This document shows positions 2,001 to 55,162 of a DNA stretch of 64,000 bases, piece after piece. Within the stretch, counting starts at the first letter, position 1. Each line of letters begins with the position of its first letter. A program made the translations under genes and the position numbers. The notes beneath the pieces were generated by a model that saw nothing but the letters and a program-made list of their open reading frames with translations, did no database searches and was not told where the DNA came from. The stretch is from Callorhinchus milii (taxonomy: Eukaryota): NCBI RefSeq assembly GCF_018977255.1, contig NW_024704742.1, positions 33,110,001 to 33,174,000 of the forward strand, written 5' to 3'.

Positions 2001-4031
2001 AAGGGAAGTTCAGGAGCTGATTTCGATTGATCGTGAACTGTTGATGTGAAGGATAAGGAGCTGAGGCTCAGAGATTGAGATCTCAAGGGTTGATAAAATA
2101 TTGGCCATTGCTGCTGATTTTAATCAAACCAGCCTAAAGGTAAAACTTGGATAATAGAGGATCAAGGATATTGGAAGGGAGTTAAGTTTTCTTCTGGGAA
2201 TTGTTTCTTTTTCTCCATTAAAGTAGTGCCACTGGTGTATTGAAATTAAGTTTTCATACCAAATATCTGCTTCTGAAGGCAGTTTTAGGAATGTACCACT
2301 TTACATTGGTAATTTAATCCATATAATCCCTTCTAGCACATTCTGAAATGTGCAAAAATGATTGTTAAGGATGTAACCTTTTTGTAATATTTGTTTCAAG
2401 ATTTAATCTTTTCAGTTTTTAATCTTATTCTTTTGATGATTGCTGCTCTCTTCATTACTAGTGGTCGAAGGAGACTAATTTCTTGGAATAACAGAAGCTG
2501 GTATGTTCACCATATGAAATTACTATGAGTGCAGTGCATTTGTACAATATACCTTGGTTTAGAGTAAAAAACTGCTGTGGTTTTTTGCATTTGAGAGTAT
2601 TTTTCTAATGAAAGTAAGTTCATCTCTGTTGCCTCATCTGATAAATTAAAGCTCTTAGTCCCAGAATCACCCTGTGTGATTTCTGAAGCCTCCCCTATGT
2701 TTCAATATCCCTTTGAAGGTTGGGTGTTCAAAACAGCGCTCAAAGTTTGTAATGTTAATTAACCACTAGTGTTAATTACTGCATAGGTACAACTTTATGA
2801 ACGTACGATATTTAACTTGTCAACTGGTCCTGGGATGTGCAGAATGCAGAGCTCGCATCCCAACATCCTTCTCAATGGTGCATCTGAGTACTCCGTGCCT
2901 AGAAATCAGCATGGATGGTAGTGAATATAGTGGCCCACTGGTATGTGTGGCCTACATGCTTGTGTCGCTGAAGTTTTCTCTCTTGCATGCACTAACATAC
3001 TGTTTGGAGTTTACCTAAATGTCAGTCCTGGTGGAGATCTAAGACTGGCTCATATTTCTTCCTTCAGTGACAAGTTAGTAGTAAAATCCTTATGTAACAC
3101 ATCTGCTGTCAATCATGTGGCCCTAGGGAAAATATCAGATATAAAGTTAATTAATAATAATGCCTCGATTTCTCTGATGTATGTTGCTTTTTTACTAACC
3201 AGTTGCAGTTAAGTTAGACAAGCACGTTCCACCAATAAACGTCAATATAACTGTGGAATAGAAAATGAAATGTTACACTTATTGGCGTAATGTTCTCCAT
3301 GGATCTCATTGAACACTAATCTGGTAAAGCTGTTACAACCTCCAGCAAAAAAAAATCTTGATTCTCTGAAGAAATTAAATTCACAACCTGCAGAAAGGAG
3401 AGGAGTAACACTGTTCTATAGATATAACATCTTAGATTGGATGAAAATCAAAATCATATCAGAAGGGAGGGGATTTAGTGAAAAGCTTGAAAGAGCTAAA
3501 GGAGATCTGTTTTGTTCATTGTCTTTTTTTCTCTCATAACAATATGAACTAATTTAATCTAGGAAAGAACACTGAACATTTTAGTCACCAAATACTGTTC
3601 TATACCAGGCTTCGATGCATCCTGCGCTTAAGCAATGCTAAATACGCATCCATTTCTACAAATTTTAGATTGTAGCTGCTTGTGTAGCATTTGTTTACAT
3701 TATTTACATCACACTGATTTCATAAAATTGAATTCTATTTCCCTTAATCATTTTCGAATGAGAATAGATTAATCTATCATTGCCTCTCTTCACAGTTCAA
3801 TGATTTTAAAACCTAGAATATTTCCACTATGGTGCCTAGTTTTGGAATAGGAATCTGGATTTATATCTCCCAATTTCTTCTGCTAAGTGTTGGGGAGAGC
3901 TCTATACTTGCCCAACTAAATGATTAAGACATCCTCCTGAAGCGTAAGACATTATATAACTGTAAATTGTATTGCGAAATTGTACTGTATAAGCAGACTT
4001 CTGTAACTGAATTAATATAGTATTAATTGTA

Positions 4032-4350
4032 GACTCCTGTAGCTTAGTGGCTAGAGCACTTGGCTTCGCAAGCAAGAGGACCTGGGTTTGATTCCTGGGC
4101 AGGGCAAAACGTTGGGCAAATTTCCTTACTCCACACGCCTAATAATAATCCCTCCAAAAACAAAACAATAATAAATTGGTCATTTTCAATCCACGACTAT
4201 CTGCGGGACACTGCTGTGTGCAATTGGCTGCCGCGTTTCGCCCACAAAACGTATAGTCAATTCACTTAACAGTTTATTCTGTGAAGCGCTTTGAGATGCC
4301 TCGAAGACGTGATAGAGTGCTTTTTCAAATGCAAGGATTATTATTATTAT
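4032..4350 (+). mobile_element. Full-length tRNA-derived SINE (short subfamily) with L2-type tail and (TTA)n
   Basis: A-box-like tagcttagtgg, B-box-like gtttgattcc, body collinear with the copies at 40330 and 55163, tail aaatgcaaggattattattattat. Confidence 0.9.
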
Positions 4351-6360: not shown

Positions 6361-6622
6361 ACGGAACAGAAGCAAAAGTGAACTACACTTCTGGTCAGAG
6401 TGGGTCTATAGTAGTAGATTATTATTATTATATGGCGGGCCTGGACTAAACAGTATAAGTGAGGCAACACCGCACTAAAGAGCACCAGAATGAGATTCCT
6501 GTGTATGTGCTATGAATAAACCATTTTTCAAAGCAGTCAATGGAGGCAGAGACTGATTTGACACGTGGTTCTTCCCACTCAGCTCACGTTAATCCTGGTT
6601 AAAGGGGAGAGTGGTTCAAACT

Positions 6623-6704
6623 GGTTCTAGATTAGGCTCCAACAGTACCTGAACGCACAATCCGGGGTCCTCAAGCTTTGGTTCTTGCCAACCTGCGCCT
6701 AATA
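6623..6704 (+). repeat. Unclassified ~490-nt repeat family, short internal fragment
   Basis: ctccaacagtacctgaacgcacaatccggggtcctcaagctttggttcttgccaacctgcgcctaata aligns with the middle of the copies at 8424, 14401 and 27495. Confidence 0.7.
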
Positions 6705-6868
6705 TTGTTGAGCATAGTGACTGTGTATTGTAGGTGAACATTGCAGCCAACTAATACACCGTAGTGTCTCTCAAATAGCCATCAGATAAATAACCCGTTT
6801 TATTTGAAGGATTATTAGCCAGAACACTAAGAGAAACTACTTTCTATTTTTGAATAGTGACATGGGTC

Positions 6869-7848
6869 CAACAACAACTTGCATTTATATAGCACCTTTC
6901 ATGTGGGGTAGCATCCTGGAACATCTCCTCTCCAAGCCAGAGGGAGAGGGAGTGGTGAGGTGACTGTAAGCACAGTAAAAAGGAAGGTCTTAAGGCAGGA
7001 TTTGAAAGTAGGGAGGGGGCAAAGCCGATGGATTGAGGGAGAGAATTCCTGAGTTTCGGGGCGCATAGGCTGAAGGTACCGATGGTGGAGTGGAGAGGTC
7101 AAGGGACAAACAGGAGGGCGGAGGCAGCGGGTGGGGGTGTGGGGGTAAGCAGATCAGATAGGTGTGAGGGCATGAAGCAATTTGAAAACGAGTGAGAGGA
7201 TCTTGAAATCGATCCGTTCAGTAATTCGGAGCCAGTGGAGCCTTGCAAGGACTGGTGTGATGGGGGTATGGAGTTTTGTGGGGGTGAGTATCCGGGCAGT
7301 GGAGTTTTGAATTAATTGAATTTTATATATGGTGGAGTTGCGGAGACCAGCGAGGAGGGCATTGGAATTGTCCAGCCAGGAAGTGTCGAAGGCGTGGATG
7401 AGGATTTCAGTTGCATTGGTTGTCAAGTACGGACGGAGGCAGGCAATGTGACAGGGGTGGAAAAAAGCCTGGTCAGGGAACGGATGTGTGGAAGAAAGGA
7501 AAGCTGGGGATCGAACCTGGCGCCTAGGTTGCGCAAGGGTGCAGTGAGTCTGAGGGAGAGCCTGGGGAGGTTGAGGCATTCAGACCCACAGGAGAGAAGA
7601 TGTTGAGGGGAGCCAAAGAGTATGGCTTCCATCTTGCCAACACTCAGCTGCAGGAAATTTGAGCTCATCCAGGCCTTGATGTCTGTCAAACAAGCTGACA
7701 GGACATCAGCAGACTGGGAATTGTAGCTGGAGGGGGAGAAGTAAGATTTGTATGTCATCCACATACATGTGGAAGTTGACCCCATGTCTGTGGATGACAT
7801 CGCCGAGAAGGAGCATGTAGATAAGGAAAAGAAGAGGCCCCAAGGGTC
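6869..7848 (-). mobile_element. 5'-truncated L2-clade LINE (RT C-terminal half to 3' tail), frameshifted
   Basis: Minus-strand peptides LTDIKAWMSSNFLQLSVGKMEAILFG, RNLGARFDPQLSF, LIHAFDTSWLDNSNALLAG and LARLHWLRITERIDFKIL. Tail aaggtgctatataaatgcaagttgttgttg. Confidence 0.92.
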
Positions 7849-8226
7849 AAGCCTCTCCATGGCCTTGCCCCCTCCTATCTTTCTGACCTGCTAACCCCCT
7901 ATCAACCTGTCCCCGCCCTCCGTTCAGCAGGCCTGCTCCATATCTCCCCCCCAATCCACTTACCATTGGCAGCCAGGCTTTCAGCCTCTTTGCCCCCACC
8001 TTTTGGAACTCCATCCCACAATCCCTTCGCCTTGCTCCCTCTCTTGCCTCCTTCAAGGCACGACTCAAGACCAACCTTTTTGACCGTGTCTTCAGCCGCC
8101 CTCTTACCCCGTCTGCCCTCCTTCATCCCAACCCCCCACACTCGGTCCTGATCCCTGATTGTTCAGTGTCTTGGGACGGCCTCCCGACATGAAAGGCACT
8201 TTACAAATGTAATTTTGTTGTAGTTG
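7849..8226 (+). mobile_element. L2 LINE 3' end
   Basis: LHGLAPSYL-like start and a pyrimidine-rich 3' UTR. Tail cttgggacggcctcccgacatgaaaggcactttacaaatgtaattttgttg. Closely similar to 28850-29238. Confidence 0.88.
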
Positions 8227-8378
8227 CATATTAGCCAAACCGTGAGCTCAAAATCTCTGACACGAGACTTGAACCACAATTTTCTGACCCAGAGGCAAGA
8301 GTGCTCCAGACTGAGCCTGGCTGACACCTAATTAAAGCTGATGTAATGTAATTAAAGCCACTTGTAATTGTTTTCATA

Positions 8379-9125
8379 CATGGCACTTAGCATTGTTACA
8401 TTTATACATGGTTTACACATGCCACTTCTGTGGCAGTCTTGGTAGTCCGATTCCTCAGCCAGGCAGGTTTGCAGTACTCCAAGGCACTGCTGATGTTACT
8501 ATAGCCAGGGTGGCTCATCAGCAGGACTTGGAAGGGCAGCCCAGTCATTGGGGGAGAGTGTCATTCCATTTAGCTCCCATCAACTCTGCAACCAAAGCCC
8601 TAACTGGTAGGATAAGCAGTGGAAAAGCTTGCCAGGCAGTGCTATCAATGGCAAGCTACGCAGTTTTAGTTGGTTGGACTCTAGCAGTTACCCCAACACA
8701 CTTTGGAGTCCCCAAGCCTTGGCTCTTGTCAACCTGTGCCTAGTACTTTCTAGAATTAAGTAAGCAGAATGCATCCCTCCAGGGAGAGTGAACATTCCAT
8801 TCAAATATTCATGTGTAGGTGGGATGCATGAAACTCTGTTTGGTTTGGATACTCTTAAGCATGATGATGGGTTTCCGCATGTGTCAGATCCCAAAAAAGC
8901 ACAAGACACTGTTAAATTTATTTACGGTTTGCACATGACACAAAGCATTGTTACATTCGTACATGGTTTATACATAGCACAAAAGCCATTGTTATATTTG
9001 TATATGGTTTACACATGGCACATAGCACTGCTAGATTTATATATGATTTACACATAGCACAAAGATCTGTTACATTGATGCCACATAGCATTCTTACATT
9101 CATATTTGGTTTACATGTGATACAT
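8379..9125 (+). repeat. Degenerate ~39-nt minisatellite interrupted by an inserted element
   Basis: Unit approximately gcacatagcattgttacatttatatatggtttacacatg. One unit lies at ~8379-8423 and about six more at 8899-9125. Confidence 0.75.
8424..8898 (+). mobile_element. Unclassified ~490-nt A-tailed repeat, near-full-length copy
   Basis: Collinear with the copies at 14401, 17968 (-), 27495, 42347 and 43946. Ends gtgtcagatcccaaaaaa. Confidence 0.85.
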
Positions 9126-14400: not shown

Positions 14401-14887
14401 GGTCGGCAGTTCCTCAGCTAGGCTGGTCCACAATATTCCAGGGCATTGCTGTTGACAGCACAGCCAAGCTGGCTCATCTGCAGGACCTGGAAGGGCAGAC
14501 CAGTCACTGGGGGTCGGGAGTCATCCCACTCAGCTTATGTTAACCCTGCAAGTGAAAACCCTATTGGGTAGGGTGGTCCTAACTGGACAAACAGTAGGAA
14601 AGCTTGCCAGGCAAGCTACGTGGTTTTAGCTGGTTAGACTCCAGCCGTACCCCAATGCACACTCTGTTGATCCCCAAGCCCTGGTTCTTGCCAACCTGCG
14701 CTCGCTACTTTCCAGAATTAGGTCAGTAGGATGTGTCCCTGCAGGAGAGAGTGTGCTTCCATTCCAACAATCTGTTTCTGGAATTTCCATGTGTAGGTGG
14801 GATGCAAGGAATTCTCAGTTTGGTCTGGAAACTCTTAAACATGGTGATGGGTTTCTGCATGTGACAGCCACCCGGCTGACCAAAAAA
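14401..14887 (+). mobile_element. Unclassified ~490-nt A-tailed repeat, near-full-length copy
   Basis: Collinear with 8424-8898. Ends ggctgaccaaaaaa. Confidence 0.85.
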
Positions 14888-15985: not shown

Positions 15986-17967
15986 ATTAATAAGGTAATG
16001 GATAAATAGAGAGGGCTTACATTTGTATTTCTTGAAATACAGATGATGGTGCCTTTTATTTTATAGTAATGTAACCGTCACAGTGACGTTACAAGTGGCA
16101 GTCACAAATGTATAATTTATGATGGGAAGCTGTTGATCTCAGCGTGAACTCTATCTGATGCAGTGTGAACTGTGTGTATGTGTCTGTGTGTATGTGTGTG
16201 TGTATAATAGCAACATAGTTCTGTGCTGAATTAATATCACTTAATACAGCACCCCAGTTACAATTTAATAAAAACAGTGAGCTCAGTTATTCACTCATTT
16301 ATTGATTAATTCAAGATATTTCCCTATTTCTTTGTTGCACAGTATAACTCAATATTTGTGTAAATAAATGAACAAGTGTACTGTATTTAATATTCTATTT
16401 GCAGTGTACCCCTTATCAGGTACATCAAATGATTGCACACGACCAAAGCCGCTGACGGCATGATCGTTGGGCTCCTTTGATCTGTGGAAGAGTAAGAAAG
16501 GATCCTTCAGTCCGGCCAGGCATTCTGAAATCTCAATGTAATTTTCAGTGCAGCATTGTCGACCCAGCATCTACAGCTGAAAGCTGATACTGTTTTTAAA
16601 CAAATACAATTATTTTAAGGTTTCAAAAGTCAAAGAGTTCAAGTGGCGTCTCAAGGTATTGTTCATACTGCTTGTCTCAATCATTTCAATTTCTAAGGAT
16701 AATTTGTTTTAATCGAATATGCTTTTAAATTTAAAACCTAGAAGGCTAGGTTTAACGACTCCCCCTCACCCTTTGCAGTATCTTTCTGGTCTCCAGTGTA
16801 GAAAGCTTCTGTCGATGTTGAGCTTGGTTCAGTGTCGAGACTACCCCATCTCTGAGTCTGCCTGACTCAGTGCAAGTGACGTGCAGCCAATTTATAAACC
16901 ACCTGTTCCATGTTTCTGTATCTGCTGTTTATTTGGGATGATTTCTCTTTAATCTGGGCCAGATTGGAGTCCCTGGTGGTCGATTTCACCTCAAAGGAAC
17001 CCAGTGATCATGCTGGTTGTGATTTTGTGCCCCACCCCACCATCGTAACAAGCTTCTGCTGCCAATGCCTAAATGTAACTGGCACTGTACTGTGTCCGCC
17101 TACACTGTGAGTTCAAAGTCCTGATATGGAGTTAAATTTACAACTTTTCAACTCTTGTTACTTGTACACCTGCTACCAAGTAACCGTGCTGAATTCAGAT
17201 GCAAATTTAAAGAACTTGAGAATGTGGTGGATTGCTCATCATGGTTGAAAGGAATAGGAGATAAATGAGGTCGAGAAGAAATTAGGTGAAAGCAAGTCTG
17301 GGTTTTAAAAATCTGTAGATTGTAGGCGAAAAGCAAGTAAAAGGCAAGTGGTAAAAGTCAATGATGAGGCTCTGTGTTCTAACCTACCCAGGAGTGTACA
17401 AGGTTTGTTATTTTCCCAGAATATGGGAGCCAAATTAACTTGGCTTCATAGAGTGTGAAAGCTGTTGAAGGGAAAGTAAATTTTTGAAACAAAACAGGAA
17501 TCCAGGATAATTTTCACAGGACACACAATGCTAGATTGTGGGACATCCTCCCGACGTGAAAGGCGCTTTACAAATGTAATTTTGTTGTTGTTGTAGATTA
17601 CTATTTTTCAGTAGCAGAATACCAATTTCCTTAGGCATAAACCACACCATCTTAACATCACTAAACCAGGAAAGCTGAAGTACCTCACATTTCTTATCTC
17701 TTTGACAAGACTTGGAAGCTGCATTCTGATAAGGCCAACTATGCTCCATTGGTTCAGCATGATTCTCTATTGATAACTCATGATCCCGGGCAAAGTGCCT
17801 ATCTGTCACATCTGTCCATAATTAGGTGACTGTCAAGTAATTGAACCCTGAGATAAGCAGATACTCAAGGCAACTGGTGCTGGTTGGTATCTGTTGATGC
17901 CAATTGATAGGAATCCAAAATTACGATGATTCGAACAAACCAGATTTTTGCTACTGATCAAATGGTC

Positions 17968-18460
17968 TTTTGTTTTTGGTCAGCCAGGTATCTGACACAT
18001 GTAAAAACCCATCACCATGCTTAAGAGTATCGAAACCGAGATTTCCATGCATCCCACCTACACATGGAAATCCCAGAGAGATTGTTGGAATGGTATGTGC
18101 ACTCTCTCCCTGGAGGGACGCATCCTGCTACCCAATTCCAGTAAGTATTAGGCACAGGTTGGCAAGAGCCAAGGCTTAGGGATCCCAGAATGTGCGTTGG
18201 GGTACTGCTGGAGTCCAACCAGCTAAAACCGCAAAGCTTGCTATTGATATTGCAAGCTTTCCCACTGCTTGTCCAGCTAGGTCCCCTCTACCCTTTAGGG
18301 CTTTGGCTTGCAGGTTTAACAGGAGCTGGGTGGGATGAATGCCCCCTAGTGACTAGTCCTGCCGCTGAACCAGTCTGACGGTGCTGTCATCAGCTGTGCC
18401 CTGGAATACTGTGGACCCGCCTGGCTCAGAAATTGAACTACGAGACCATCACAGAGGGCT
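17968..18460 (-). mobile_element. Unclassified ~490-nt A-tailed repeat, near-full-length antisense copy
   Basis: Begins tttttggtcagccaggtatctgacac, the reverse complement of the family 3' end, and is collinear to ~18460. Confidence 0.85.
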
Positions 18461-20649
18461 GGCTCGATTCCAATATTCCATCGACACGCATGTCACCTTG
18501 GAGCCAGTTCTGCTCCCCCACCCCCAAGGAGCGTGGTTCTAATCTGTCTAAATCTGGGAAGTGTCAAAATATTTCAGCATTCATGTTCACTGATAGTTAC
18601 AGTATAGAGATTTATAAAGGAAAAGAATGGCTGTCACTTTAGGTAGAGCAAAGGAGTGGCATCGTGAGGGAAACACGAGACTGAGAAGGGCAGCTATGTG
18701 TGTGGTGGAGGAAGATGAGGGCTGGTATTGTGTGGTACTTCAGTGAGAGTGTAATTCCTATTTTGGGTTCATTATTTCAGCTGATGTCCATACTCTCTTC
18801 AAATCCACCTGGTGCTAGTTTATTCAATGCCGATCCCAGACTTTCTATTATGAGGTTACATTAGGGTAGGGGGCTTATATTTTAGATGAGACACTCTTCA
18901 TTCATTTGCCATTTGCAGAAGGTGGATATTATACATGTACATGGAGACTATACTTGAACTCTGAGAATGAAGAAGAGCTTATTTACAATGAGTTTTAACA
19001 TTCATGTTGCTGGGTTTGCATTCGAGTGGGCTATAAAACATAACAATTTATTCCAGGGTGGTTAAGGTTAGATCAAAACCCGCAGCAGTTATTTAAAAAA
19101 AAGTTTCCATGTGCTAGCAGGTTCAAAACGATCTGGTGAAACGAAGTGCTACATATAATTATAGAATTTCTATTGAATTTTGTTTGACCTATTTTTTTAA
19201 AAAAATAATTGGATTCATTTCTGAACAGATTTCCATTAAAAGCATCTTGTCTCCTTTTGAGAGGGAATCAGATAAGTCCTTGGTTAAGCACAGATTTGAA
19301 GGTCATTTAAGGATAAATGTCAGTCTAGATCATTCAGTATTGTGGAACATGATACTTCTAGTCCTGCTGAGATTTTGAGGTATCACCTTAGGAATGCAAC
19401 AGGTGAAGAATGAATCATCTGATTCATTATTCTAGATGAATGTCTAGAGTTTTTAACTAAATAACCTTTTGCAATCGAAGAGGAAGCAATATTTTCCTGA
19501 AAGTTATACTTTGACTTCCCAGATATTAAATAAAATGGGGGAGAGTCTTGAATAAGATGAAGGAGAATATTAGAATTAAATAGACTGGGGGACAGTCTTA
19601 AATAACTTAAAATCAGAATATTACAGTGTCGAGCATGACAATTTGACGAAGTCTGCACTGGTGTTTTTCTTCACAGAAGCCTCCTTAGATAATCCAACAC
19701 TCTGCTTTCTTTATTTACCATTTAATATTCCTCTTTCAGTCTATGATTGAGAATCTATGAAATTCTCTTTTTAAAGCATTCATGGATCATTTGCTGTAAA
19801 ATCAATATGTTGGAAGAAACGAACACATTTTTTTCCTCATTGTCTTCCTTTTAGAAAGCACTCTTGAGATACTATGCAGCATGAAGAGCGCTATATAAAT
19901 TCTATTTGAACACATACACACAACACAGGTGAATGAGTAAAAGGGTGATAAAATCTAAGGTTGATTTTAATTAACAGTTATCGTTGGTAGGGCAGTAATT
20001 ACCATATAGACAGAAATAAGGTCCAACGGGTACTTAAAATATGTACAGCATGAAAAGACTTGTTGAACTGTAATGTCTGGAAAGGTGTTTGTGATTTTAA
20101 TAAGCAAAAGAAGTCTGTGGACCTTTATTGTAAGATTGGATACCTGATAATACCAAACGTATTATCAGGTATCCAATTGTGGTTTTCACTTCAGTTGTCC
20201 TCTGCTGTGCCTTCCCCAAGGTATACGTACTGTAGTACAATATCCAATTGTTCCCAGTACATTCCACATGGGTTTGCACTGATGTTCCTTTCAAGATGAC
20301 AAGTCACTTACTGGGATTTATCCTCTTTTCTGGTAATACATTTGCTACCATCCTCTTGCCCACAGCTCAGACAAACATGCCTACCTATTGACTGATGTTA
20401 GCACCTGGCTGGTGAAAATCAAATCGGTTTTATTTATTACTGCTGATAGTTTCTTCCAGGTTATATATTGCAGTTATTCCCATTGAGCACACCTCTTCCC
20501 CAATCTCCAGGTTGCATTTTGTGATTGTTGTACAGAATCAGCTGCTCTGATTACACCCCCCCACCCACCCCCACCCAGCTTTCTCTAGTAATATTTTTTT
20601 ACAACCCCTCTTCTGTTTCTCCCCCCACACCCCACCCCATAAAATTATA

Positions 20650-22249: not shown

Positions 22250-23410
22250 ACCCTGAGTGAGTTTCAATCCGTCTATCTGGTCTGTCACCAAAACTGCATT
22301 CTTCCACTTCTATAATATTGCTCAATTATGCCCTTACATGAACCCCCACCTCACTGAGCCAATCTGGAACCTTGGTGTCTTGTTTGACCCTCAACTGTCC
22401 TTTCTACCCCACATCTGCGCCATGCCCTGCTGTGCCTTCCTCCACCTCCGCAACTTTGCACGGCTCTAACACTGACCCTCTCATCAGGCCACTGAAACCC
22501 TCATCCACACATTTATCTCATTTAGGCTTGACTACGCCAATTCCCTGCTTGTTGGCCTTCCCAACTCTTCTCTCCACAAGCTACAGATCATCAAGACCTC
22601 TTCAGCTCATGTCCTCTGCCGCACCAGGCTCCGTAACCCCATCACCCCCACACTGATGTCCCCCAGAGGATAGAGTTGAAAATCCTCGTCCTCGCCTTCA
22701 AGGTCCTCCTTGGCTTTGCTTCTTCTTACCTCTGTGACTTGCTAACGTCATAGCAACCTGTTTGCTCCCTCCGCTCACAGGCTCCAGCTTGCTCCACATT
22801 CCTTACCCATACCACCCCACCATTGGCGGTGGGGCCTTCAGCGTCTGTTTCCATAGGAACAGGAGGAGGCCATTCAGTCCTTCGAGTCTGTTCCGCCATT
22901 TAATTAGATCATGGCTGATCTGTACCTCAAATAATCCTTTCAATTCCAATTTCCTGCTTTCTCCCCATATCCCTTAATACCCTGACCTACCAAAAATCTA
23001 TCAAACTCACTCTTGAAGGTGTGGATCGATCCAGCATGTGGGTCGAGAATTCTAGATTTCTACCACCTTTCGAGTGAAAAAATGCTTCCTGATTTCACTC
23101 TTAAATGGCCTGGTTCTAATTTTAAGACTATGCCCCTTGCTTTGGATTCCCCTATTAGAGGAAATAGCTTCTCTGTATCAAAGGACCTAGCTTCTCCCCA
23201 CCCTTTGGAACTCTATCCCACAGTCCCTATGCCTTGCTCCCTCCCTGTCTCTTTCAAGGCATGTCTCAAACCCTTATCTTCGAATGGGCCTTCAGACACC
23301 CTCCTACCTTCCCTGCCCTCCATCTCCCCTGATCCTAACCCCCTGCTCGGGTCCCCATGACGTGAAAAGTGCTATACAAATGTAATTTGTTATTGTGTTG
23401 TTGTTGTTGC
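22250..23410 (+). mobile_element. L2 3' fragment interrupted by a CR1 insertion
   Basis: NLGVLFDPQLSFLPHI..LHLRNFARL and HPTIGGGAFS precede the insertion. L2 resumes at ~23190 (ctttggaactctatccc) and ends gacgtgaaaagtgctatacaaatgtaatttgttattgtgttgttg. Confidence 0.85.
22851..23180 (-). mobile_element. CR1 3' end nested inside L2
   Basis: ataggaacaggaggaggccattcagtccttcgag..atcatggctgatc..ccccatatcccttaatacc is homologous to the CR1 end at 1235-1560. Confidence 0.85.
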
Positions 23411-27330: not shown

Positions 27331-27439
27331 TTTTTCCTCTTCCCTTTGGAATGTAACTAAATATTCACATAGAACAAAGCGCTGCACTGTAGGGCAGGAA
27401 TGGTGGCCATTAATTCATTAGGGAAATTGAAGTTAAATG

Positions 27440-28230
27440 TAGACTCACCTCTGAGTCAGAAGGTTGTGAGCCCCATGTTGAACCTAGCTCTTTGGCAGGA
27501 CTTCAAAGAGAAGACCGTCACTGGGGGCAGGGAGTCATCCCACTCAACTCCTGTTAACCCTGTAAGCCAAAGCTCTAACAGGTAGGGTGGTCTCAGCTGG
27601 ACGTGCAGCAAGAAAGCTTGCCAGACAATACTATCAATGCCAAGCTACAAGGTTTTAACTGGTTAGACTCCAGCAGTACCCCAATACACACTCTGGGATC
27701 CCCAAGCCTTGCTCTTGCCAACCTGTATCTAGTACTTTCCGGAATTAGGTAAGCAGGATGCGTCCCACCAGGTAGAGAGTGCGCATTCCATTCCATCAAT
27801 CTTATCTCTGGAATTTCCATGTGTAGGTGGATTGCATGGAATTCTCAGTTTGGTTTGGATACTCTTAAGCATTGGTGATGGGTTTCTACATTTGTCAGGC
27901 ACCTAGCTGACCACCCCAAAAAAGCTGGACATCTGACTTGATAGACTTGGCTGACCCTCCAGTATGCTAGGAGAGTGTTAATTGATACTGTCCTTTGAGT
28001 GAGATGTTAATTCTGCTTGTTTGGGTGGATTTTAAAGAACCCATAACACTATTTGCAAGGAGAAGGTAGTTTCACCTGGTGTCTTGGCCAACAACCTTCC
28101 AGATCAATTGTCATTCACTTCATATCTGTTTGTTGAATAATGTGTATAAATTGGCTGTTTTGTTTGCTTAAATTAATCACTGGCCTTGACAGTAATTACA
28201 GTGTATGTGAAGTGATTTGAAATGTTGAAT
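27440..28230 (+). mobile_element. Old Deu-domain SINE split by insertion of the unclassified repeat
   Basis: Head gactcacctctgagtcagaaggttgtg at ~27442. The Deu-like body (ggctgac..gtcctttgagtgagatgttaa..ggtggattttaaagaacccataacactattt..ctggtgtcttggccaaca) resumes after 27923. Confidence 0.7.
27495..27923 (+). mobile_element. Unclassified repeat, 5'-truncated copy
   Basis: Starts at gcaggact (an internal position of the 8424 and 14401 copies) and ends gtcaggcacctagctgaccaccccaaaaaa. Confidence 0.85.
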
Positions 28231-28404
28231 GTGGCAGCCGCTGCATATAGCACTTTGTTCAAAAAGGAGTGTTTTGCGATCAAAGGCTAAACTACAGCAG
28301 GAAAATTGCTTTTCTACATTGGTTATTTTGGGTCACAGTTAGGTGAGTGGCTGCCAATTTAATATTCCAATATTCTGAATTCAGAAATGGAATATAGAAC
28401 AGAT

Positions 28405-29238
28405 GTGGTGTCAACTTCCACATGTACCTGGATGACACTCAACTCTATCTCTCTGCTTCCACCTTCGATTCCAGGACTACTGACATCAAGTCCCGGATGA
28501 GAGCCAACTTTCTACAATTGAATGTCAACAAGACTGAGGCCCTCCTGATTTGCTCGCGCAAGCGCCTCTGCACCTCAGGCACTGGCAGCATCAGCACCTC
28601 AGGCACGAGCAGCAACAGCACACTCCACCTCACCAAGCCAGTCAGAAACCCTCAACTTGTTCGACCCTCAACTGCCCTTTCTCCCTCTGACAGCCTCCCC
28701 AACTCTTCCTTCCACAAGCTGCAGATCATCCATAACTCTGCAGCACGTGCCCTCTCCCACATCAGGCTCCATAACTCATCACCCCCACCATCGCCCGGCT
28801 CCACTGGCTCCCCATCCCTTTTGATAGAGTTCAAAATCCTAGTCCTCACTTTCAAGGCCTTCCACGGCCTTGCCCCTTCCTACCGCTGACCTGCTAACCC
28901 CTATCAATCTGTCCGCTCCCTCTGCTCAGCAGGCTCCAGCCTGCTCCAGGTCCCCCACCCAATCCGCCCTACCGTTGGCAGCCAGGCTTTCAGCCTCTCT
29001 GCTCCCACTGTTTGGAACTCCATCCCACAATCCCTTCGCCTTGCTCCCTCTCTTGCCTCCTTCAAGGCACAACTGAAGACCATCCTTTTTGACCGTGTCT
29101 TCAGCCGCCCTCTTACCCCCTCTGCCCTCCCTCATCCCAACTCTGCCCCCACACTCGGGTTCTGATCCCTGACTGTTCAGCGCCTTGGGACGTCCTCCCA
29201 ATGTGAAAGGCGCAATACAAATGTAATTTTGTTGTTGG
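28405..29238 (+). mobile_element. 5'-truncated, internally deleted L2 LINE
   Basis: ORF 28422..28889 contains MYLDDTQLYLS (RT YxDD), ANFLQLNVNKTEALL and IEFKILVLTFKAFHGLAPSY. Tail gcgccttgggacgtcctcccaatgtgaaaggcgcaatacaaatgtaattttgttgttg. Confidence 0.92.
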
Positions 29239-30369
29239 AATTGAATCTAGTGGACCTATGTTTACACTGAACTCATCCACATCACCACATCACAGTTTGG
29301 CAGCTGTGAGTTTTGCAAGTTCCCATGGGGAGAGGGGATAAAAAATAGTTCTGTTGTCTGATTTTGAAAACTGCCTCCATTGCGCTCTGAATACTCTTTG
29401 GTGTGCTGACTCCAGTCACCATTTTTGCCATTAAGATGCAAAATTATATATATTATTCAGCATAAAGCTCTTGAATTTCTAATCTGAATGGTATCAAATA
29501 AAACTTATCAAGTCTTAGCCCAGATTTTTCCAACTATCCCTATCCCCATGAGCAAATGATGTCGATTGCTCCTTATTCATTTTGCTTCAACATCAAATGC
29601 TGAAGCTTCAACCACTATGCTCCTATCCTCTGGAATTCTCTTCCAAAACCACTTTGCTTTTCTACGTCTCTTCTTGCCTTATAAACTTTCATAAAATCTG
29701 TCATTACCTGTGCCTTCAGTCAACATCTTTAAATGTCTTCTTTCCCTGCTTTGTAGCCATTTGTTTTTTGCTTGACCTTCACAACATTGTCTGCCTCTTC
29801 CATTATCTTTCCCCTGGGTTAGTAAGACCCACATCCAGCTTGATTTATTACAGCATCCTGTTTGCCAGACTCCCAGCTCCTCCCTTAACAAACTGCAGCT
29901 GCAAAAGTCTGCTTGTGTCCTCTTCCGCACCAGGCTGTGCAAGCCTATCACCCCCTCCGTCGCTTAGCTCCATGAGTTCCCCAACCCCTGAGGATCGAAT
30001 TCAAAATCTTCATCTTCAAATTCCTCTGTGCCTTTGCTCCACCAAACCTCGGTGACTTCCTGCGATCCTCCATCCCTTGTCTGCTTCATTCCCCCTACCC
30101 CACCATCGATAGCAAGTTTTCAGCCATTCTGTTGCCATTCTCTGGAACTCTATTCCAGTTTGTCCACCTCTGCTCACCTTTTAAGGCTAACTGTAGATAG
30201 CCTTTGGAAGGCTAAGAACTAAATTCTCTTTCATGTCCCAATCTCTTATTATTGATATAGTGTCTTTCATGTTGGGAGGACATTTCAAAGCGCACACAGA
30301 ATTTAGTGTAAGTGTAGTGACCGTGTAGATTGTAAATGAACATGACAGCCCCACATTGGGACTTTGAAC

Positions 30370-30992: not shown

Positions 30993-33900
30993 TCCAGTTT
31001 GAGCCAGAATGTCAAGCTTCTGTTGTGATAAACTCAGTGATGAACTGTTGTGTTTTGTTCTTAAAAATCCTCCACATGACCAGTTGACTTCATCTAATGG
31101 CTTCAAGCACTCACATGAATGGGCAGGCAAATGGATGCAAACTCCTGTACTGCTTCCTCTCCTGAAGACTAACCATGATTCTTAAAGGATGAAATTAATC
31201 CACTTTCAGTTTTCAGAGACCTGAAAAGATTCTCCTCAGTGAATTCTCTTGTGTCTCTTGAGTGTATAGTTGAAAGCGATAAACCATAATCACCTGCATG
31301 ACTGAAACCTAAACGTATAGGGAGTTTTTCTATAGCAGAGCAGTTTCAAATAAAGTCAGTTTTGTGTTGCCGAAGGCCACTACTGTTGAGGAATTTATGA
31401 TGATCTTAAGAGGATGATACCACTGTACTAGTGCTAATACAAACAACTGTGCATTTAAAGTCTGACACCGCAAGGTTTGCTCGTTTGACTGCTCCACAGA
31501 TTGATATGCCCCTTACATACAGAGTTGTTAACAAGGAAAGGTGATTGACCCCAGATTGCTGTATTCATTTAAAAGGAAACTGGATGTTAAAATGGGAAGA
31601 TGAGTATTCTGGAAAGATAAGATCAAATGGGCTGATGGGCTTTCTTCATCTGAATCAACCTTGTGATTATTTGCCTGTTTTTCAAATTTGATAAATGTAC
31701 AAGTTGGGGAAAGAAGAAGCAGTTTTCAAACTAGAGCTCAACCTGTGGATGACTTATTATAGGTATGGTCATCTTTTCCTTCAAATACAATCAAAAAGAT
31801 TAACTTATCTTTTTCCACCAAGTGTATGGTCAACATCCTTAATTTTCCCTTCTTTCCTCTGCTTGTAGATCCCCATCATCATTGTGAAGCATCTTGAGAT
31901 TTTCATCCTATGTGATGTATAAGTAGATGCCATATAAATAAGTGTTGTTGTCCACTCTATAGGTTGTCTTGAATAAGCTAGTGCTAACATAAGTATTATT
32001 GCTGATTTCTCCTTGAAGGATCTGACGATGTGGCAAGAATTACAAAATAAGGCACAGATGATTGATCTCATGTCGTCTTTTGAAATTGAAGGCAGGGTGC
32101 CCAGGTTTTCTTCTCTCATTGTGGATGACTGATCCTGTTTGTAGAGATAGGTTGCATTCAAGAGCATGCATATTTGCCATTCCAACATCCAGTCATGTAG
32201 AATACAGTTCAGACAAACTGGAGAGCAATTCATCAACCGCTATGTCATTTAGTATTGAAATGTTAAAGCCTCATTTTTGTTCTTTACCCCCAGATAAGGT
32301 TAAATTAAATCATTGTTGATGAATGGGTTATGCTCCCCTACTCATTATGTGAAAATTATAGTGGCCATTTCCTAGCTGCTCAGTAGAATAGCTTGAAATT
32401 GATTTGTTTTTTATAGTGTTAAATAGGTCATGTTTCACTTGTGGCAGCCTTGGGGCAAGAGAAGTGCTGCTACATGTGCTGTGTATAAACCAATAATTTG
32501 GCTTACAATATATATGCTGTGTCTGAGTCTTCTCTAAAATATAGCTTTCTAAATCTCAGCTGAGTGGGGAAAGAGATTGCTCCATTTCAGCACTATATTT
32601 AAAAAAGCAACTGGGTGTTACAGTGGGAAGATGAGTATTCTGGAAAGATAAGATCAAATGGCCTGATGGGCAGACCAGAAGCTTATAGGTTTGAATCCCA
32701 ATACTGACTTATTAGATCCCAGGTTGGGTAGCATTTTGGAAGACTCAGTTGACCTCAACGCTCCTCAGCTTGGAAGATTATAATTTACCAGAGTTTGCAT
32801 TCTTGATCACTATCCACTGGCTTCTGCTGGAAAGTTTGTGCATGTAGATGTCAGATGAGAACATATTGAACTATTTGCCTAAATTAACCTGGTAACTCTT
32901 CTTCATGTAACCTTGAAAATGGTCTGACCAGAGGCTCTGAAATTATACCATAATAATAATCCTTGCATTTGGTATAGTGTCTTATGTCTTCCGAGACATC
33001 TCAAAGCGGGTCACAGAATATAGTGTAAGAGACTGTAGTCTCTCATGTGCCAATATATATATGTAATTGCAAGCTGTAGCAATGAATGACGTGATTGATA
33101 TCTCTTCAGGTTCTTCTGCTCCAAGAGAAGATGCTTGTGCTTTCACGTACTTGAGGCAGGCAAGGTCGAGAGATGGGACTGAACACAAATTATTATAGAG
33201 TTGATGGGAAGAAACTTTGGATTATCTGTCTGGAGAAGTTTATTTGCACATTCTTAGGGTCATTAGCAAGGTGTAAATGGAGATCAATATACTAATTCTG
33301 CTACTCGTGTGAAGATTTGTTCTCAAGCCTGCTGTGATTCTGCATCAATCACTTCATTAGAAGCTATATTGATGTTGGATCACCATCTAAAGTCTCCACA
33401 TAATTTGCTCTCCAGAGCATCAGCATACCATGCAGGGTTTCCCCCTTTTCAGTCATGTTTATATATATAGCACATTTCATGCCAGGGGGATGTCCCAAGC
33501 ACTATTGCTACTCAGAAAAGCTTCCAATGCCAAGTGAAGGAAACAAATCATTGCATTGGTTTGCAGTGGTTCGGTGTGTGATAACCTCAAACTGCACCGA
33601 GGTTAGATGGGATAGAAAGCGAGATTGAGAAAGTCTGATGTACTGTGGTTGGAAGGGAAGAATACATTTCAGGGTACAGTTTGTGGGGCTACTCCATCAC
33701 AGATCCTCAGATTACGTTTGAAAAGGGAATTAATTTCTCATCTGATTGTTACACTTGTTTTGGAAATATGAAAAAATGTTGCTCCTGTAAGCACCTGATA
33801 TATAAGTGAGTTGTGATGGTCTCTTGTTTGAATTAGAGCACATGTAGCTTGCCTTTCACTGTGGTTGGAAAAATACTGAAAAGGCATTATTCGAAAAATG

Positions 33901-39574: not shown

Positions 39575-40020
39575 ATCTTTCATGTCAGGAGGATGTCTCA
39601 AAGCCCATCAAAGCATTTATTGTAAAGTGTAACGACTGTACTTTGTAGGTGAATATGGGAGCCAATTTGTGCAAAGAAATGTCTTGAAAGCAGTCATGAG
39701 ATTAATGACCAATTTTATTGGGCGGGAGTGAGATGTGGGGTGGTTGGTGCCTTGGACACCAGGAGAAACTCCCTTTCTTCGTCAAACAGTGTCATGAGAT
39801 CCTTAACGTCCACCCGAACAGGTAGACAGGACCATCGGTGCAAGGATTATTATTATTATTATCTCATTGGAAAGATTGTAGCTCCAACAATGCAGTGGTT
39901 CCCCATGCACTGTATTGGAGGGTCAGCCTAGATTTTGAATAAAAAATTCTGATGTAGAGCTTGAACCCACAAACTTCTGACTCAGGGGCCAGAGTGCTGC
40001 TATCTAAGCCAAGCTGACAC
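39575..40020 (-). mobile_element. Near-full-length old Deu-domain SINE, antisense
   Basis: Tail at 39575, then Deu segment ggacaccaggagaaactccc..gtgtcatgagatccttaacgtccacc, then head cttgaacccacaaacttctgactcaggggccagagtgct..agccaagctgac. Confidence 0.75.
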
Positions 40021-40329
40021 CATCTGTTTTGCAATTCAAATGACTTTGAAATATATTGGAGTATTTACATTTTTTTAAATTATGTCTAATGAGATGCTCA
40101 TCTTGTTATTGACTCAAAGCATTTCACAGAGTTGGTTTGGCATGTTGTGACCATCAGTCAAAATTGGCCTATAATCTGTGCGAGAGGCTTGACCAGGAGA
40201 GTATGAGAAACTCACTTCTCTTTAACTTCCATCACACCTGAACAGTAATTTTGTGTTACAGAAAGATGGCATCTTCAATAGGTTCCCCCTAGTATTGCAT
40301 TGATGTGTCAGCCTAAACTATGAGCTCCA

Positions 40330-40632
40330 GAGTCCTGCAGCTCAGTGGTTAAAGCACTCGCTTTGCAAGTGAGAGACCTGAGTTCAATTCCAGGCAGGGC
40401 GAAACCTTGGGCAAGTTTCCTTACTCCACACGCCTAATAATAATCCCTCCAAAAAAACAAAAACAATAATAAATTGGTCATTTTCAATCGGGACACTGCT
40501 GTGCGCAATTGGCTGCCGCGTTCGCCCACAAATATACAGTCAATTCACTTTACAGTCTATTCTGTGAAGCGCTTTGGGACGTCTAGAAGACATGAAAAGC
40601 GCTATATCAAATGCAAGGATTATTATTATTAT
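40330..40632 (+). mobile_element. Full-length tRNA(Ala)-like SINE (short subfamily)
   Basis: gagtcctgcagctcagtggttaaagcactcgctttgcaagtgagagacctgagttcaattcc through tgcaaggattattattatt. Nearly identical to 55163-55487. Confidence 0.92.
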
Positions 40633-42346: not shown

Positions 42347-42580
42347 CTCCAAAGTATGCTGGGGTTCCAAAGCCTTGGCTCTTGCCAACCTGTGCCTAAT
42401 ACCCTCCGGAAATGGTTAAGCAGGATGCGTCCCTCTGGGGAAAGAGTGTGCATTCCATTCCAACAAATATCTCTGGAGCTTCCATATAGAGGTGGGATTC
42501 ATGGAACTCTGTTTGGTTTGAATACTCTTAAGCATGGGGATAGGTTTTCACATGTTAAAAACGTGGCTGACCAAAGAAAA
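42347..42580 (+). mobile_element. Unclassified repeat, 5'-truncated copy
   Basis: aagccttggctcttgccaacctgtgcctaatac through ggctgaccaaagaaaa. Confidence 0.85.
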
Positions 42581-43399
42581 TGCCACCTTTCACGTCAGGA
42601 GGGAATTTAGTGTAAAATCAAATAAAGGCAAACACTGCTGCTGGTTTTACACAGCCGTATTCTATAAACACAGATGAAGTGAATGACCAACTTTATTTGA
42701 GTGATTGTTGGTCAGAACACTATGAAAAATTCCATTCTGCTTTCGAATAGGATCTTTAACATAAACTTGAACAGGCAAAAGTGAACTTGGTTTAACACCT
42801 CATGTAAAGATGGCACCTCCAACAATGTAGTGCTTATCCAGCACTGTAGTCAGGTATCAACCTGGACTATGAAAGTTAAAGTCCTGATGTAGAGCTTGAA
42901 CCTACAACTTTCCAAGGTTGGGTTGGTATGGTGTGCAACTAACTTGTTAGGGTAACTTTTACAAAAACAAAACCATATTGGATCCAAGCCAGAGATTTTA
43001 AGCTTTGTGATAGACAAAATGTGATGCAAGTCAAACACAAAGTTTGGTATGTTTTTAACATGATTTCTTTGCTTTTCATAAGCGTGACTGAGTTCAAATT
43101 TGTGTTGGGTAGAGTTTGAGCTTGATGGACATTGTTGCCATGTCTTCACCACCTTGTCTTATTTTGAACATCTGAAAAGCATGTTGATTTTCTTCTATTG
43201 GGCTCCCTTTGGCAGCAGTTTATTCTGTTAGTTTAATAGGCACAATTTATCTTCAGATTTATTGGTGATTTTGCATGTACAGACATGTCTGCAGTTGTAA
43301 TACTTACTATATGTTCAAATTAAATGCATTTTGTTCTTGCATTCAAGTCAATGATTTTGCTCTGATCTGCTGATGGAGTAAATTCTGATTATCTCTACT

Positions 43400-43945: not shown

Positions 43946-44221
43946 TGCCAAGTTTTAAGACGGTTAAACTCCAGCCGTACCTCAGCGTTTAATCTGGGAT
44001 CCCCAAAAGCCTTGATCTTGTTAACCTGTGCCTAATACTCCCCTGGATTAGATAAGCAAGATGTGTCCCTCCAGGGAGAGAATACTCATTTCATTCCAGA
44101 ATCAAAAAATTCCCATATGTAAGTGGCATATACAATATGGAACTGTGTGGTTTGGAAGACTCTTAAGCATGTTAATGGGTTTCCACAAGTGTCCATGTCA
44201 GACACTTGACTGACCAAAAAA
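43946..44221 (+). mobile_element. Unclassified repeat, 5'-truncated diverged copy
   Basis: actccagccgtacc..ctgggatccc..acctgtgcctaatac..gtccctccagggagag..ctcttaagcatg..gtcagacacttgactgaccaaaaaa. Confidence 0.8.
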
Positions 44222-51199: not shown

Positions 51200-51505
51200 A
51201 CCAGAACTACTTTTTACCACTTCCACCACATCACCTGCCTCTGACTACACCTCACATGCAGCTGAAACCCTTATCCAGGCGTTTGTCACCTCCTACCTCG
51301 ATTTTTTTTCCCCGATGCCCCTATTGCTAGTCTTCCAGCTCCAATTGAAATCCAATTAATTCAAAATACCACCAACATTAAACTCCACAACCCCTTCACC
51401 CCAGTGCTTGTCAGGCTCCTAATTGTAGAATGATTTGATTTCAAAATTCTCACACTTGCATACAAATCACTTTGTGCCCAGCACCTCCCTACCTCTCCCA
51501 CCAGT
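51200..51505 (+). mobile_element. Degraded L2 ORF2 fragment
   Basis: catgcagctgaaacccttatccaggcgtttgtcacctcc encodes HAAETLIQAFVTS; gatttcaaaattctc encodes DFKIL. Confidence 0.75.
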
Positions 51506-51510
51506 TTAGA

Positions 51511-51663
51511 CCTTACGGGTATGGTGGTCAAGTAGCTATGAAACTTGACAGGCAATGCCCTCAAGCAATGGTAAGCTGTGCAGCTTTCGCTGATTAAATT
51601 CCAGCACCCTCACGCACACTCTGGGGTTCCCAAACCTCGACTCTTGCCAGCTTGCTTCTAATA
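51511..51663 (+). repeat. Unclassified repeat, internal fragment
   Basis: aatggtaagctgtgcag..ttccagcac..cacactctggggttcccaaacctcgactcttgccagcttgcttctaata aligns with the family core. Confidence 0.7.
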
Positions 51664-51677
51664 TTTGCTTCTAATAC

Positions 51678-52452
51678 TTGCTCCTCAAAAAACCTTCCCT
51701 AAATCCCTCAAACCCTAGCCACTACCGCCCTATTTCAAACCTGCCCTTCCTAGCAAAAGTCCTAGAACGTGTTGTTGCAAATCAACTCCGTGCAACCTCT
51801 CCTCCCACTCGCCCTTCAAACACTCCTCCAGTCCAGTTTCCGCCCTGCCCAGAGTACAGCGCTTGTGAAAGTCTCAAATGACATCCTGTCTATCTGTGAC
51901 CAGGGCTCCCTCTGCCTTCTTGTCCTCCTGGACCTCTCCGCCACGTTTGACATAGTCGATCACGCCATCCTTCTCCATTGCCTTTCCTCCATCATCCACC
52001 TCAGCGGGACAGCACTCGCCTGGTTCGAGTCCTACCTCTCAAACCACCAGCAGTACATTTGTACAAACGGCTTCTCCTCCCGCTCTCACCCGGTTACCGA
52101 CGGAGTACCCCAAGGATCCATCCTTGGCCCCCTCCTCTTTCTGATCTATATGCTCCCTCTTGGGGATGTCATCCGCAGACATGGGGTACACTTCCACGTG
52201 TATGCGGACGATACTCAACTCTATTTTTCACCTCACTTTGCGACCCCCAGTCCTCTGATGTTCTGTCAGCCTGCTTGTCAGACATCAGGAGCTGGATGAG
52301 TGCGAATTTCCTTCAGCTGAATGTTGACAAGCCGGAAGCCATACTCTTTCATCAACGTCTAAAATCCCATGGTTCTCATCTCCTCCACCTACCCAACCTC
52401 ACCCTAAAACTTTCTGAATCCATACGCAACCTAGGCGTCAGGTTCGACCCCC
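51678..52452 (+). mobile_element. L2-clade LINE reverse transcriptase domain fragment (frameshifted)
   Basis: [72 protein letters not shown] and HVYADDTQLY cover the RT motifs including YADD. Confidence 0.95.
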
Positions 52453-52456
52453 ATTT

Positions 52457-52925
52457 AGAAAAAGTGGTAGAGGACAGGGGATGATGGGTTAAAGAGGTGT
52501 AACTTTAACAGCTCACCTTCCCCTCTACTATGACCATTAACACATCATCTTGGTTCCAGACACACCTTTTCTCTCTTCAGTCTGCCTATTTTGTTACAAC
52601 CTTTCACCCTTCTTTATTCTGCATTATTAACACCTCTATTCCCGTTTTGTTGCAATCCCCGCCTTTGTCTTGTACCATTAACACCTCTTTAAACCATCAT
52701 CCCCTGTTCTCTACCCCATTTTCTCCTTTGTCTTCCTTGCTCTGCCTCCCTCCTCTCTTTTAGCCCTTAAAAGCCTCTCCTTCCCCAGTTCTGACGAAGA
52801 GTCATGGACCCGAAAGGTTCTCTAACTTTCCTTTCTCCATAGATGCTTCCTGACCTGTTGAGTGTACCCAGTGACTTCTGTTTTTGTTTCAGATTTCCAG
52901 CATCTGCAGTATTTGGCATTTTATT
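52457..52925 (+). mobile_element. Penelope-like element terminal fragment with inverted 5' segment and hammerhead-ribozyme remnant
   Basis: CTGACGA-stem-GAAA core at 52791-52815, followed by gatgcttcctgacctgttgagt..ttctgtttttgtttcagatttccagcatctgcagtattt. 52457-52502 is an inverted copy of 52678-52724. Confidence 0.7.
52787..52827 (+). ncRNA. Minimal type I hammerhead ribozyme motif, probably decayed
   Basis: agtt-CTGACGA-agagtc-atg-gaccc-GAAA-ggttctct-aact. The CUGANGA and GAAA boxes, stem II (one mismatch) and a 4-bp stem I are present. The stem III/cleavage region is abnormal. Confidence 0.55.
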
Positions 52926-53960
52926 AAAACATTAATTGCTTTGCCACAAATAACTAATGAGGGTAAGACCATAAAAAACATTTAAGTGGGAATTGGATAA
53001 ACATTTGAAGAGAAACGGAGTAAAAGAGTAGGAGAAAGGAGTTGAGAATTGCAATTAAAGTGGTTAGTTTCAGTCGTGGAGCTGGCACCGGTAGAGGCCT
53101 GATCGGACAAATAGCTTCTTTCTCTGCTCTAATATATTTGATTTTCTGTATTGGAGGTGGCTGAAAAACTCCAGCAACAGGTGAGAATTCACCTTATTCT
53201 AGGTCCCATAATTGGACAAGTTTGTCAAATGAAAAAAAATCAGAATGGTGGTAATGCCTCCAAATTCGCCGACAAAGCGCTATTCAATATCATGTGAAGT
53301 GGTTTGAGACGTCCTCTTGGCATTCACTATAACAAATGTAAGGATTATTATTACTATAAATTATTCAAATAGTTTGACCAGAAGATTGATTAGCTACATT
53401 TAATCTGCTTTTACTTTGGCGTTTGGTCAAATGCCTCAGATTCAAATTTCAGAGTGTAAGCTACCACCAGTAAGCACGTACTTTGGCTGGACGAGCTGTC
53501 TGCATGACGTCCTTTGAGGACTTTTAATATAATGCCATAGAGGAAATAACTGAATGCAATTTGGATATGCCAATGCATCAGGACAAGGGGACACAGGTTC
53601 GGGACAATACAAGTGAAGGACAATTTCAGGAAATATGCTTTACATAGCAGGTTGACACCTGGAATTGGTTTTCAGAAATAATAGTAGAATCCAGGACATA
53701 GGACTAATTTAAGAAGCAGCCTGATTTTATAATGAAAGAATGGCAGGGTTTACATTTTGGAAGGATAAGAACAAATGGACCTAAGGGCTTTCTTTCATCT
53801 AAATCTCTATTGTAACATTGTGATTAAAAATCTAAATGTTCACTGTCTTCCCAAACTTGCAATTTCATTTGTGTCGTGTTGATAGGTGTAAAGAGGTGTT
53901 AAATTGTACCAATTTGTTGATATTTTAGGTGACTTGACTCTTTCCTACCAGTTATTTGCA

Positions 53961-54834: not shown

Positions 54835-55162
54835 GTTATTTGCAACCTCTTCACTAGAACTCTTTCTGATCTTTGTCATGCCCTGAGGTTTTGGGCTTCT
54901 TGAACCCTTTCAAAGCTGTTCAGGTTTCCCACAGTGTTTCTATTGAAAACTTGTTTTTAGAAGCCTAGAAGTTCCTGTGTGCTTTGTGCCGAAATTCCTG
55001 CCGTTGACATTTTATTTACGGTTTAAAAAAGTCAAATGTGAAGCACTTCCAACTGACATACAGTATTTAATGTCATTTATTGCTCCCCAATTGGGAGTTG
55101 TTGGAAGAAATAAGCATGTTTGAATGCTGAGCTCTTGTTAAAGCAATAAATGAACACTTTGT

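Follow-up and report, generated by a model that had tools for sequence, protein, structure and literature searches.

The question raised by this locus is what kind of mobile element lies behind a non-coding sequence repeated in the genome of a holocephalan-type fish, and which machinery spread it. The window, i.e. the whole stretch of 64,000 bases analysed here, had been described in a preliminary way as containing eight copies of an unclassified unit, for which two options were offered: the 3' UTR of a LINE or a SINE-like unit. These options were judged to be the right ones, and the element is, with reasonable confidence, best explained as an extinct, high-copy, non-autonomous non-LTR retroposon of the SINE type, about 575 nt in length. 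It displays several general traits of a SINE, being short and non-coding, interspersed at high copy and provided with a fixed 3' end followed by an A-run.

Copies, ends and length of the element

The eight homologous copies (Table 1) are linked both by self-blastn of the window and by an HMM. This HMM was trained on six of the copies, so that those six are recovered by construction; the other two were recovered independently (E 2e-20 and 2e-16), and no ninth copy was found in the 64-kb window, the next HMM match having an E-value of 1.3. The copies are 69-84% identical to each other in pairwise comparison (self-blastn of the window) and 79-91% identical to the majority sequence, the substitutions being mostly transitions. 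Seven of the eight lie on the + strand, and together they account for 2787 of the 64000 window bases.

Table 1. Position of the element copies and of the features recognised within the longest copy.
Feature	Position	Strand	Basis or remark
Longest copy; ~575 nt element counting its internal deletions	17968..18520	-	Contig pile-up, HMM
Copy from element position 66	8424..8898	+	HMM, alignment to majority
Copy starting at element position 88 and reaching the A-run	14401..14887	+	HMM, alignment to majority
Copy from element position about 140-150	27468..27923	+	Nested within a SacSINE1-like Deu-SINE head
5'-truncated copy from element position 353	42350..42580	+	HMM, alignment to majority
5'-truncated copy from element position 313	43950..44221	+	Directly after a tRNA-Ala SINE tail
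Internal fragment with deletions, ending at element position 395	6529..6704	+	HMM, alignment to majority
Internal fragment, most diverged (79%), ending at element position 398	51458..51666	+	HMM, alignment to majority
Short A-rich run of the longest copy	17968..17977	-	Sequence
3' tail with the GTCAG-N8-CTGAC stem-loop (17979-17996) at its end	17979..18012	-	Alignment, folding; weak Bov-B/RTE likeness
Likeness to the conserved domain of RTE 5' UTRs (Ceph 3'-half), first half only	18157..18205	-	By eye; pattern match 18157-18175
Body blocks at 18355-18400 and 18251-18293, presumably LF-SINE-like and in the same order	18251..18400	-	GCTGATG hairpin included
5' head, beginning with a G-run; overlooked in the preliminary description	18420..18520	-	Pile-up, word scan
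A-box-like word, one mismatch	18495-18505	-	Word scan
B-box-like word, one mismatch	18461-18469	-	Word scan

The variable 5' ends that had been reported were found in all eight copies, which begin at eight different element positions. The common 3' end ascribed to six copies holds for the place of the short A-run, shared by these six of the eight, and fails for the terminal hairpin, the 3' arm of which is kept by five only: copy 8424-8898 lacks about 9 nt ahead of the A-run, corresponding to this arm. The two short copies (6529-6704 and 51458-51666) are also truncated on their 3' side, both at element position 395-398 and with unrelated sequence beyond, and are possibly a shorter or older variant having only the middle part in common with the rest. 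The fixed 3' end, the A-run and the variable 5' ends fit the target-primed reverse transcription originally proposed. The hairpin near one end and the fact that no TSD is seen would also suit a solo LTR or an element derived from a DNA transposon (of MITE or Helitron type); such an origin is extremely improbable, being largely refuted by the presence of one fixed end with A-run and polar truncation, and neither terminal inverted repeats, as had been noted before, nor TG..CA LTR ends are found in the sequence.

As regards TSDs, none above chance was detected in five of the six copies examined, all of them old, and the signal of the sixth (8424) is explained by the surrounding 39-bp minisatellite, which occupies 8362-8420 and 8898-9076 and is split by this copy. 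Copy 27468 lies inside the head of a SacSINE1-like element, recognised by eye against published alignment rows, and was thus inserted later than that host copy.

Several further repeats were observed in the window. The host of copy 27468 belongs to a set of SacSINE1-like Deu-SINE fragments, located at 27400-28150 (the one with the element copy inside) and in four more matches elsewhere (6806-6867, 39742-39826, 42658-42750 and 56470-56532). Inverted arms of 44 bp, 91% alike and separated by a pyrimidine-rich spacer (52457-52500 / 52681-52724), lie where a stretch of L2 RT debris ends and are MITE-like, and another pair of 155-bp inverted arms, 82% alike, is found at 56176-56330 / 56755-56913. 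Moreover, there is a 196-bp tandem pair at 63568-63946, as well as direct pairs at 57233-57613 with 60805-61173 (74%) and at 31568-31640 with 32599-32671 (90%).

The length of the unit had been given as ~490 nt, with the minus-strand copy ending at 18460; both values have been revised. Contigs of four public sequencing runs were aligned to 17851-18750 at 80% likeness, and three of the runs, which represent two organisms (two runs being from one organism), yielded 8657, 34719 and 21188 contigs matching the element, with the same majority letters in both organisms; from the fourth run, of a third organism (X21), no contigs were obtained, possibly because of filtering. Contig depth is high from bin 17941-17970 through bin 18511-18540 and at single-copy level (8-22) outside, from 18541 onwards. 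Thus, the minus-strand copy extends ~55 bp further 5' than first stated, its real end lying at about 18515-18525, and the unit with this added 5' part measures at least ~575 nt. The edge of the pile-up marks the stop of one copy (17968-18520) and not necessarily that of the family, and this 5'-most point is reached by one of the eight window copies. Such a length lies inside the range of 75-662 nt given for SINE families in a passage of PMC3531059.

The abundance of the family is apparent from the same contigs. In run X2, depth amounts to 3-4 x 10^5 over the 3' part and declines to 2-3 x 10^4 close to the 5' end, a fall partly confounded by the divergence of the copy used as reference. Run X1 (guessed to be RNA) covers the unique flank as well as copy 17968-18520. 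The depth contrast (up to 4 x 10^5 vs about 10), together with the density in the window, suggests tens of thousands of genomic copies, summed contig depth not being equal to copy number.

Coding capacity, 5' head and RNA folding

In agreement with the earlier statement that no ORF is present, no open frame in the majority sequence exceeds 85 aa, the length of the longest. No Pfam match was obtained for three element-containing frames, and protein searches with two element frames gave no match; a coding origin was rejected on the basis of these short frames and of the missing Pfam and protein matches. The RT ORF that had been suggested as worth seeking upstream of the longest copy was not found, the flank being single-copy, and no RT debris adjoins the 5' end of any window copy. 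Decayed pieces of L2-type ORF2 do occur elsewhere in the window (51766-52500, with an RVT_1 match at 51766, 53933-54840, 22346-22857, 28398-29243 and 6973-7890).

These results bear on the first of the two original options, namely that the copies are 5'-truncated fragments of the 3' UTR, 575 nt or longer, of a poly(A)-ending autonomous LINE (RTEX/L4-like or of another clade). A LINE origin of this kind would account for the eight different starting points, for the (partly confounded) drop of the X2 depth toward the 5' end and for the failure to detect a tRNA head, and it is nevertheless unlikely: contiguous RT debris is absent from the window copies, the longest of which has a single-copy flank, the two frames lack protein matches, promoter-like words lie at the 5' limit, and a tail of Bov-B type would sit within about 40-70 nt of the end of the ORF. 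A 3' UTR of ~40 bp is given for AviRTE in a passage of PMC4844689.

The promoter-like words belong to the 5' head of the SINE-type unit. Two A/B-box-like pairs, with one mismatch each and spacings of 46 and 68, were found in the sole head-bearing copy; the contig-majority letters weaken the downstream B-box candidate, and that at about 18430-18438 was rejected, since the contig majority reads worse there than this copy does. A tRNA head was found neither by Rfam nor by relaxed ARAGORN nor by a tRNA model of our own, derived from two of the window's SINE heads (best E 4.9, with one decayed head copy available). Rfam gave no 5S match either; by eye, a likeness of the head to published 5S alignment rows was seen. 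The description of the family as promoter-less had been based on a unit ~55 bp too short; the added part carries the A- and B-box-like words, and a tRNA model match is absent from it. A TTTT run within the element body would hinder Pol III.

A separate observation on tRNA-like sequences concerns an AT-rich phage-like contig (L014:3735-3862), in which such a sequence is apparently split by about 57 nt and possibly represents an intron-bearing tRNA; an HNH-like ORF is adjacent to it.

Much emphasis had been placed on an unusual structured RNA. The listed stem-loops were indeed recovered in the majority sequence; in TCCCT-cc-AGGGA, a loop of 2 nt is too small to be closed, so that the stem is reduced to 4 bp. 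Copy 8424..8898 carries a 9-bp AGCTTGCCA hairpin at 8626-8657. The element may be called hairpin-dense in that it has more stems than shuffled sequences, although only modestly above chance: 21 stems of at least 5 bp were counted vs 13.4 in 300 shuffles (P 0.02), and for stems of at least 6 or at least 7 bp the P value was 0.08. The MFE z-score of the majority sequence is -3.3, vs -2.8 for the majority of the tRNA-Ala SINE in the same window; the sense strand folds better than the antisense (z -2.9 vs -1.2), and single copies have z-scores of -2.0 to -3.1.

Retrocopies of a cellular structured RNA with functional hairpins could be proposed on account of this folding of the sense strand, which is better than that of shuffles (z -2.9 to -3.3); since the level is the same as that of a plain tRNA SINE, and neither covariation nor a known fold accompanies it, this reading is very improbable. 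The covariation check, suggested at the outset, turned out unfavourable, with an RNAalifold term of +4.66 and two-sided change in 4 of 79 pairs (six of the eight copies), which neither proves nor refutes past function, dead copies not being expected to covary. As to known folds, no Rfam family reached threshold on the element, either in a scan of the whole window at gathering score, which returned three tRNA-like SINE heads, all outside the element, or in five E-value scans of the copies, with chance-level matches only. A hammerhead ribozyme was rejected because the core pairing is absent (descriptor scan, Rfam), and a 5' HDV-like ribozyme because no fully paired descriptor match exists at the 5' end and Rfam gave none; one mid-element HDV-like descriptor match was equalled in 4 of 100 shuffles. 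The internal hairpins would mostly reflect ordinary folding of SINE RNA, and the emphasis on structure is not supported.

The 3' tail and its likeness to RTE elements

The tails of Bov-B and MAR1, as given in a part of the PMC5786205 supplement, resemble the last 35 nt of the element. Eleven ruminant RTE fragments, near-copies of one family, were fetched for comparison by a Bov-B motif scan of bacterial assemblies. With the whole element as query, none of the 11 loci scored above shuffles (P 0.11-0.94), and for nine of them the best alignment lay at the 3' end of the element. The majority tail gave P<0.03 against Bov-B/Bov-A tails in 18 of 20 tests, on the same strand and with the 3' ends in register, and P 0.16 in the remaining two; these tests comprised five of the 11 loci under four scoring schemes, with 4030 background 60-mers and only ruminant Bov-B/Bov-A tails, and the tail query had been picked after the likeness was noticed. 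Three of five single-copy tails never fell below P 0.1. Furthermore, a terminal stem of the GTC..GAC type is folded by both the majority tail and the Bov-B/Bov-A tails.

The bacterial assemblies themselves deserve a remark: ruminant Bov-B/Bov-A DNA was seen on short contigs of 11 of them (L003-L013), where it is most likely contamination.

A second likeness, upstream of the tail, concerns the conserved RTE 5' UTR domain, which occurs in Ceph-SINEs and many RTEs according to passages of Kojima (PMC5786205). A tailored pattern for this domain matched in two of the eight copies, the chance mean being 0.01. The second, better conserved half of the domain is absent from the element, and the Bov-A 5' UTR box is unmatched in it (P 0.39-0.89). 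Searches with the tail motif returned 0 matches and then one chance match in metagenome data, two chance matches in viral contigs and none in plasmids; viral contigs contained neither RTE-domain nor Bov-B motifs. A Vingi tail was also considered and was rejected, the parts of the literature covered giving it no support.

In stringent SINE/LINE pairs, a shared 3' stem-loop is the usual recognition signal of the LINE, as stated in a passage of PMC3747384. Moreover, passages of PMC5786205, PMC7245038 and PMC4844689 indicate that RTE elements often spawn SINEs with pieces of their 5' UTR and 3' end, and that tails are exchanged; SINEs having RTE 5' and 3' pieces together with unknown or GC-rich heads exist as well (parts of PMC5786205 and PMC4844689). 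Judged from the sequence likenesses, the mobilising partner may, with weak to moderate confidence, be an RTE-clade LINE. No partner enzyme had been named in the preliminary description; the weak resemblance of the tail to RTE-clade tails now provides a candidate, the likeness being non-significant over the whole element.

The spread of a SINE-type unit could then be envisaged as follows. A source copy would have been transcribed from its 5' head, by Pol III if this head is a decayed tRNA derivative, and the 3' stem-loop of the transcript would have been bound by an ORF2 protein, encoded by a LINE of the stringent type that most likely belonged to the RTE clade. At a nick in the chromosome, reverse transcription would then be primed from the A-run, and early stops would give rise to the 5'-truncated copies. 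The element is probably a composite, in which a 5' half presumably related to LF-SINE would be followed by a 3' half that contains RTE-like pieces.

Novelty and comparison with known SINE families

The element is not described in the passages on chimaera SINEs that were covered, a scope outside which Repbase, Dfam and the 2007 elephant-shark deposits lie, and no identification of it is contained in the parts considered of PMC5753468, PMC3531059, PMC5381603, PMC13343379, PMC2746220, PMC12952989, PMC9004415, PMC13708176 and PMC3964593. The literature returned by one of the searches for the element makes no mention of LF-SINE; in a passage of PMC5753468, LF-SINE is classed as a tRNA SINE. Ten high-copy consensus repeats were deposited by the 2007 elephant-shark survey, two of them SINE-like and one of unknown identity (part of PMC1845163). 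A family so abundant is likely to be present in a repeat library, and an entry for it may exist already in Repbase or Dfam or among the 2007 elephant-shark repeats.

With three elephant-shark families, CmiSINE (SINE2-1_CM), SacSINE1-CM (SINE2-2_CM) and UCON3_CM, the element shares the kind of host and the abundance. CmiSINE is holocephalan-specific; it begins with a tRNA-Ala head, contains a CORE-like word and ends in an L2 tail, according to passages of PMC5499810. The commonest SINE of the window, a tRNA-Ala/CORE SINE with L2 tail (4027-4350, 40329-40632, 55159-55480 and many 3' fragments), fits this description, and a chimaera-type fish is inferred as the host. Unlike CmiSINE and SacSINE1-CM, the element has no L2 tail, no CORE or Deu domain and no blastn similarity to such families in the window, which bears out the earlier remark on its distinctness from the L2-tailed families. 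With the domain row of UCON3_CM, as given in a part of PMC7245038, it shares only one 8-mer, and the UCON3 domain was not recognised in it by eye. By sequence comparison, then, the element is none of these three families.

Among the SINEs mobilised by RTE and the bipartite RTE derivatives, the relevant cases are Bov-A, MAR1, WALLSI1/1A, RTE-N1/N2_Lch, the hagfish SINE2-1_EBu and the AviRTE SINEs. Like them, the element is non-coding and a few hundred nt long, it has a weakly RTE-like terminal stem-loop and a head of uncertain origin, and upstream of the stem-loop its sequence partly resembles, by eye, the conserved domain of RTE 5' UTRs. In contrast, the element ends in an A-run and theirs in a microsatellite, and it shows no visible 13-19-bp TSD, no Bov-A 5' box and no second half of the RTE domain.

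The remaining comparison is with LF-SINE (LFSINE_Vert) of the coelacanth, reportedly described by Bejerano in 2006. The head (18420-18520) and two body stretches carry short blocks in what we take to be the LF-SINE order, over the first ~285 nt, and this stretch presumably takes in the part behind the PCBP2 exon; an antisense frame of the element reads ASFP, which we take to be read in the LF-SINE-derived PCBP2 exon as well. Rfam and PDB searches of the LF-SINE-like stretch gave no match. The 3' half and tail of LF-SINE presumably differ from those of the element, which would therefore be at most a relative of LF-SINE and not a member. Its last ~50 nt, with the terminal stem-loop before the A-run, are in our assumption closer to AmnSINE2 and MamSINE1 than to the Bov-B/RTE tails; AmnSINE2 and MamSINE1 are shorter than the element and have plain tRNA heads and other bodies.

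As a repeat, the element is ordinary. A possible, rather doubtful reading would make it a new sister lineage of LF-SINE in cartilaginous fish, in which a head and body of LF-SINE type would have exchanged their 3' half for an RTE-type tail as in AmnSINE2 and MamSINE1, with amplification in chimaeras to tens of thousands of copies. If this were true, the LF-SINE module would already have been present in the jawed-vertebrate ancestor, and three ancient SINE families would be linked by one tail and one LINE partner. Likewise, if the link with LF-SINE holds, an abundant relative from cartilaginous fish, decayed by 10-20%, would date the module earlier and show the exchange of tails between LINE partners. 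LF-SINE fragments are classic examples of mobile sequences that became enhancers and exons in vertebrates; for all three families with which the element would then be connected, LF-SINE, AmnSINE2 and MamSINE1, exaptation as human enhancers and exons is known.
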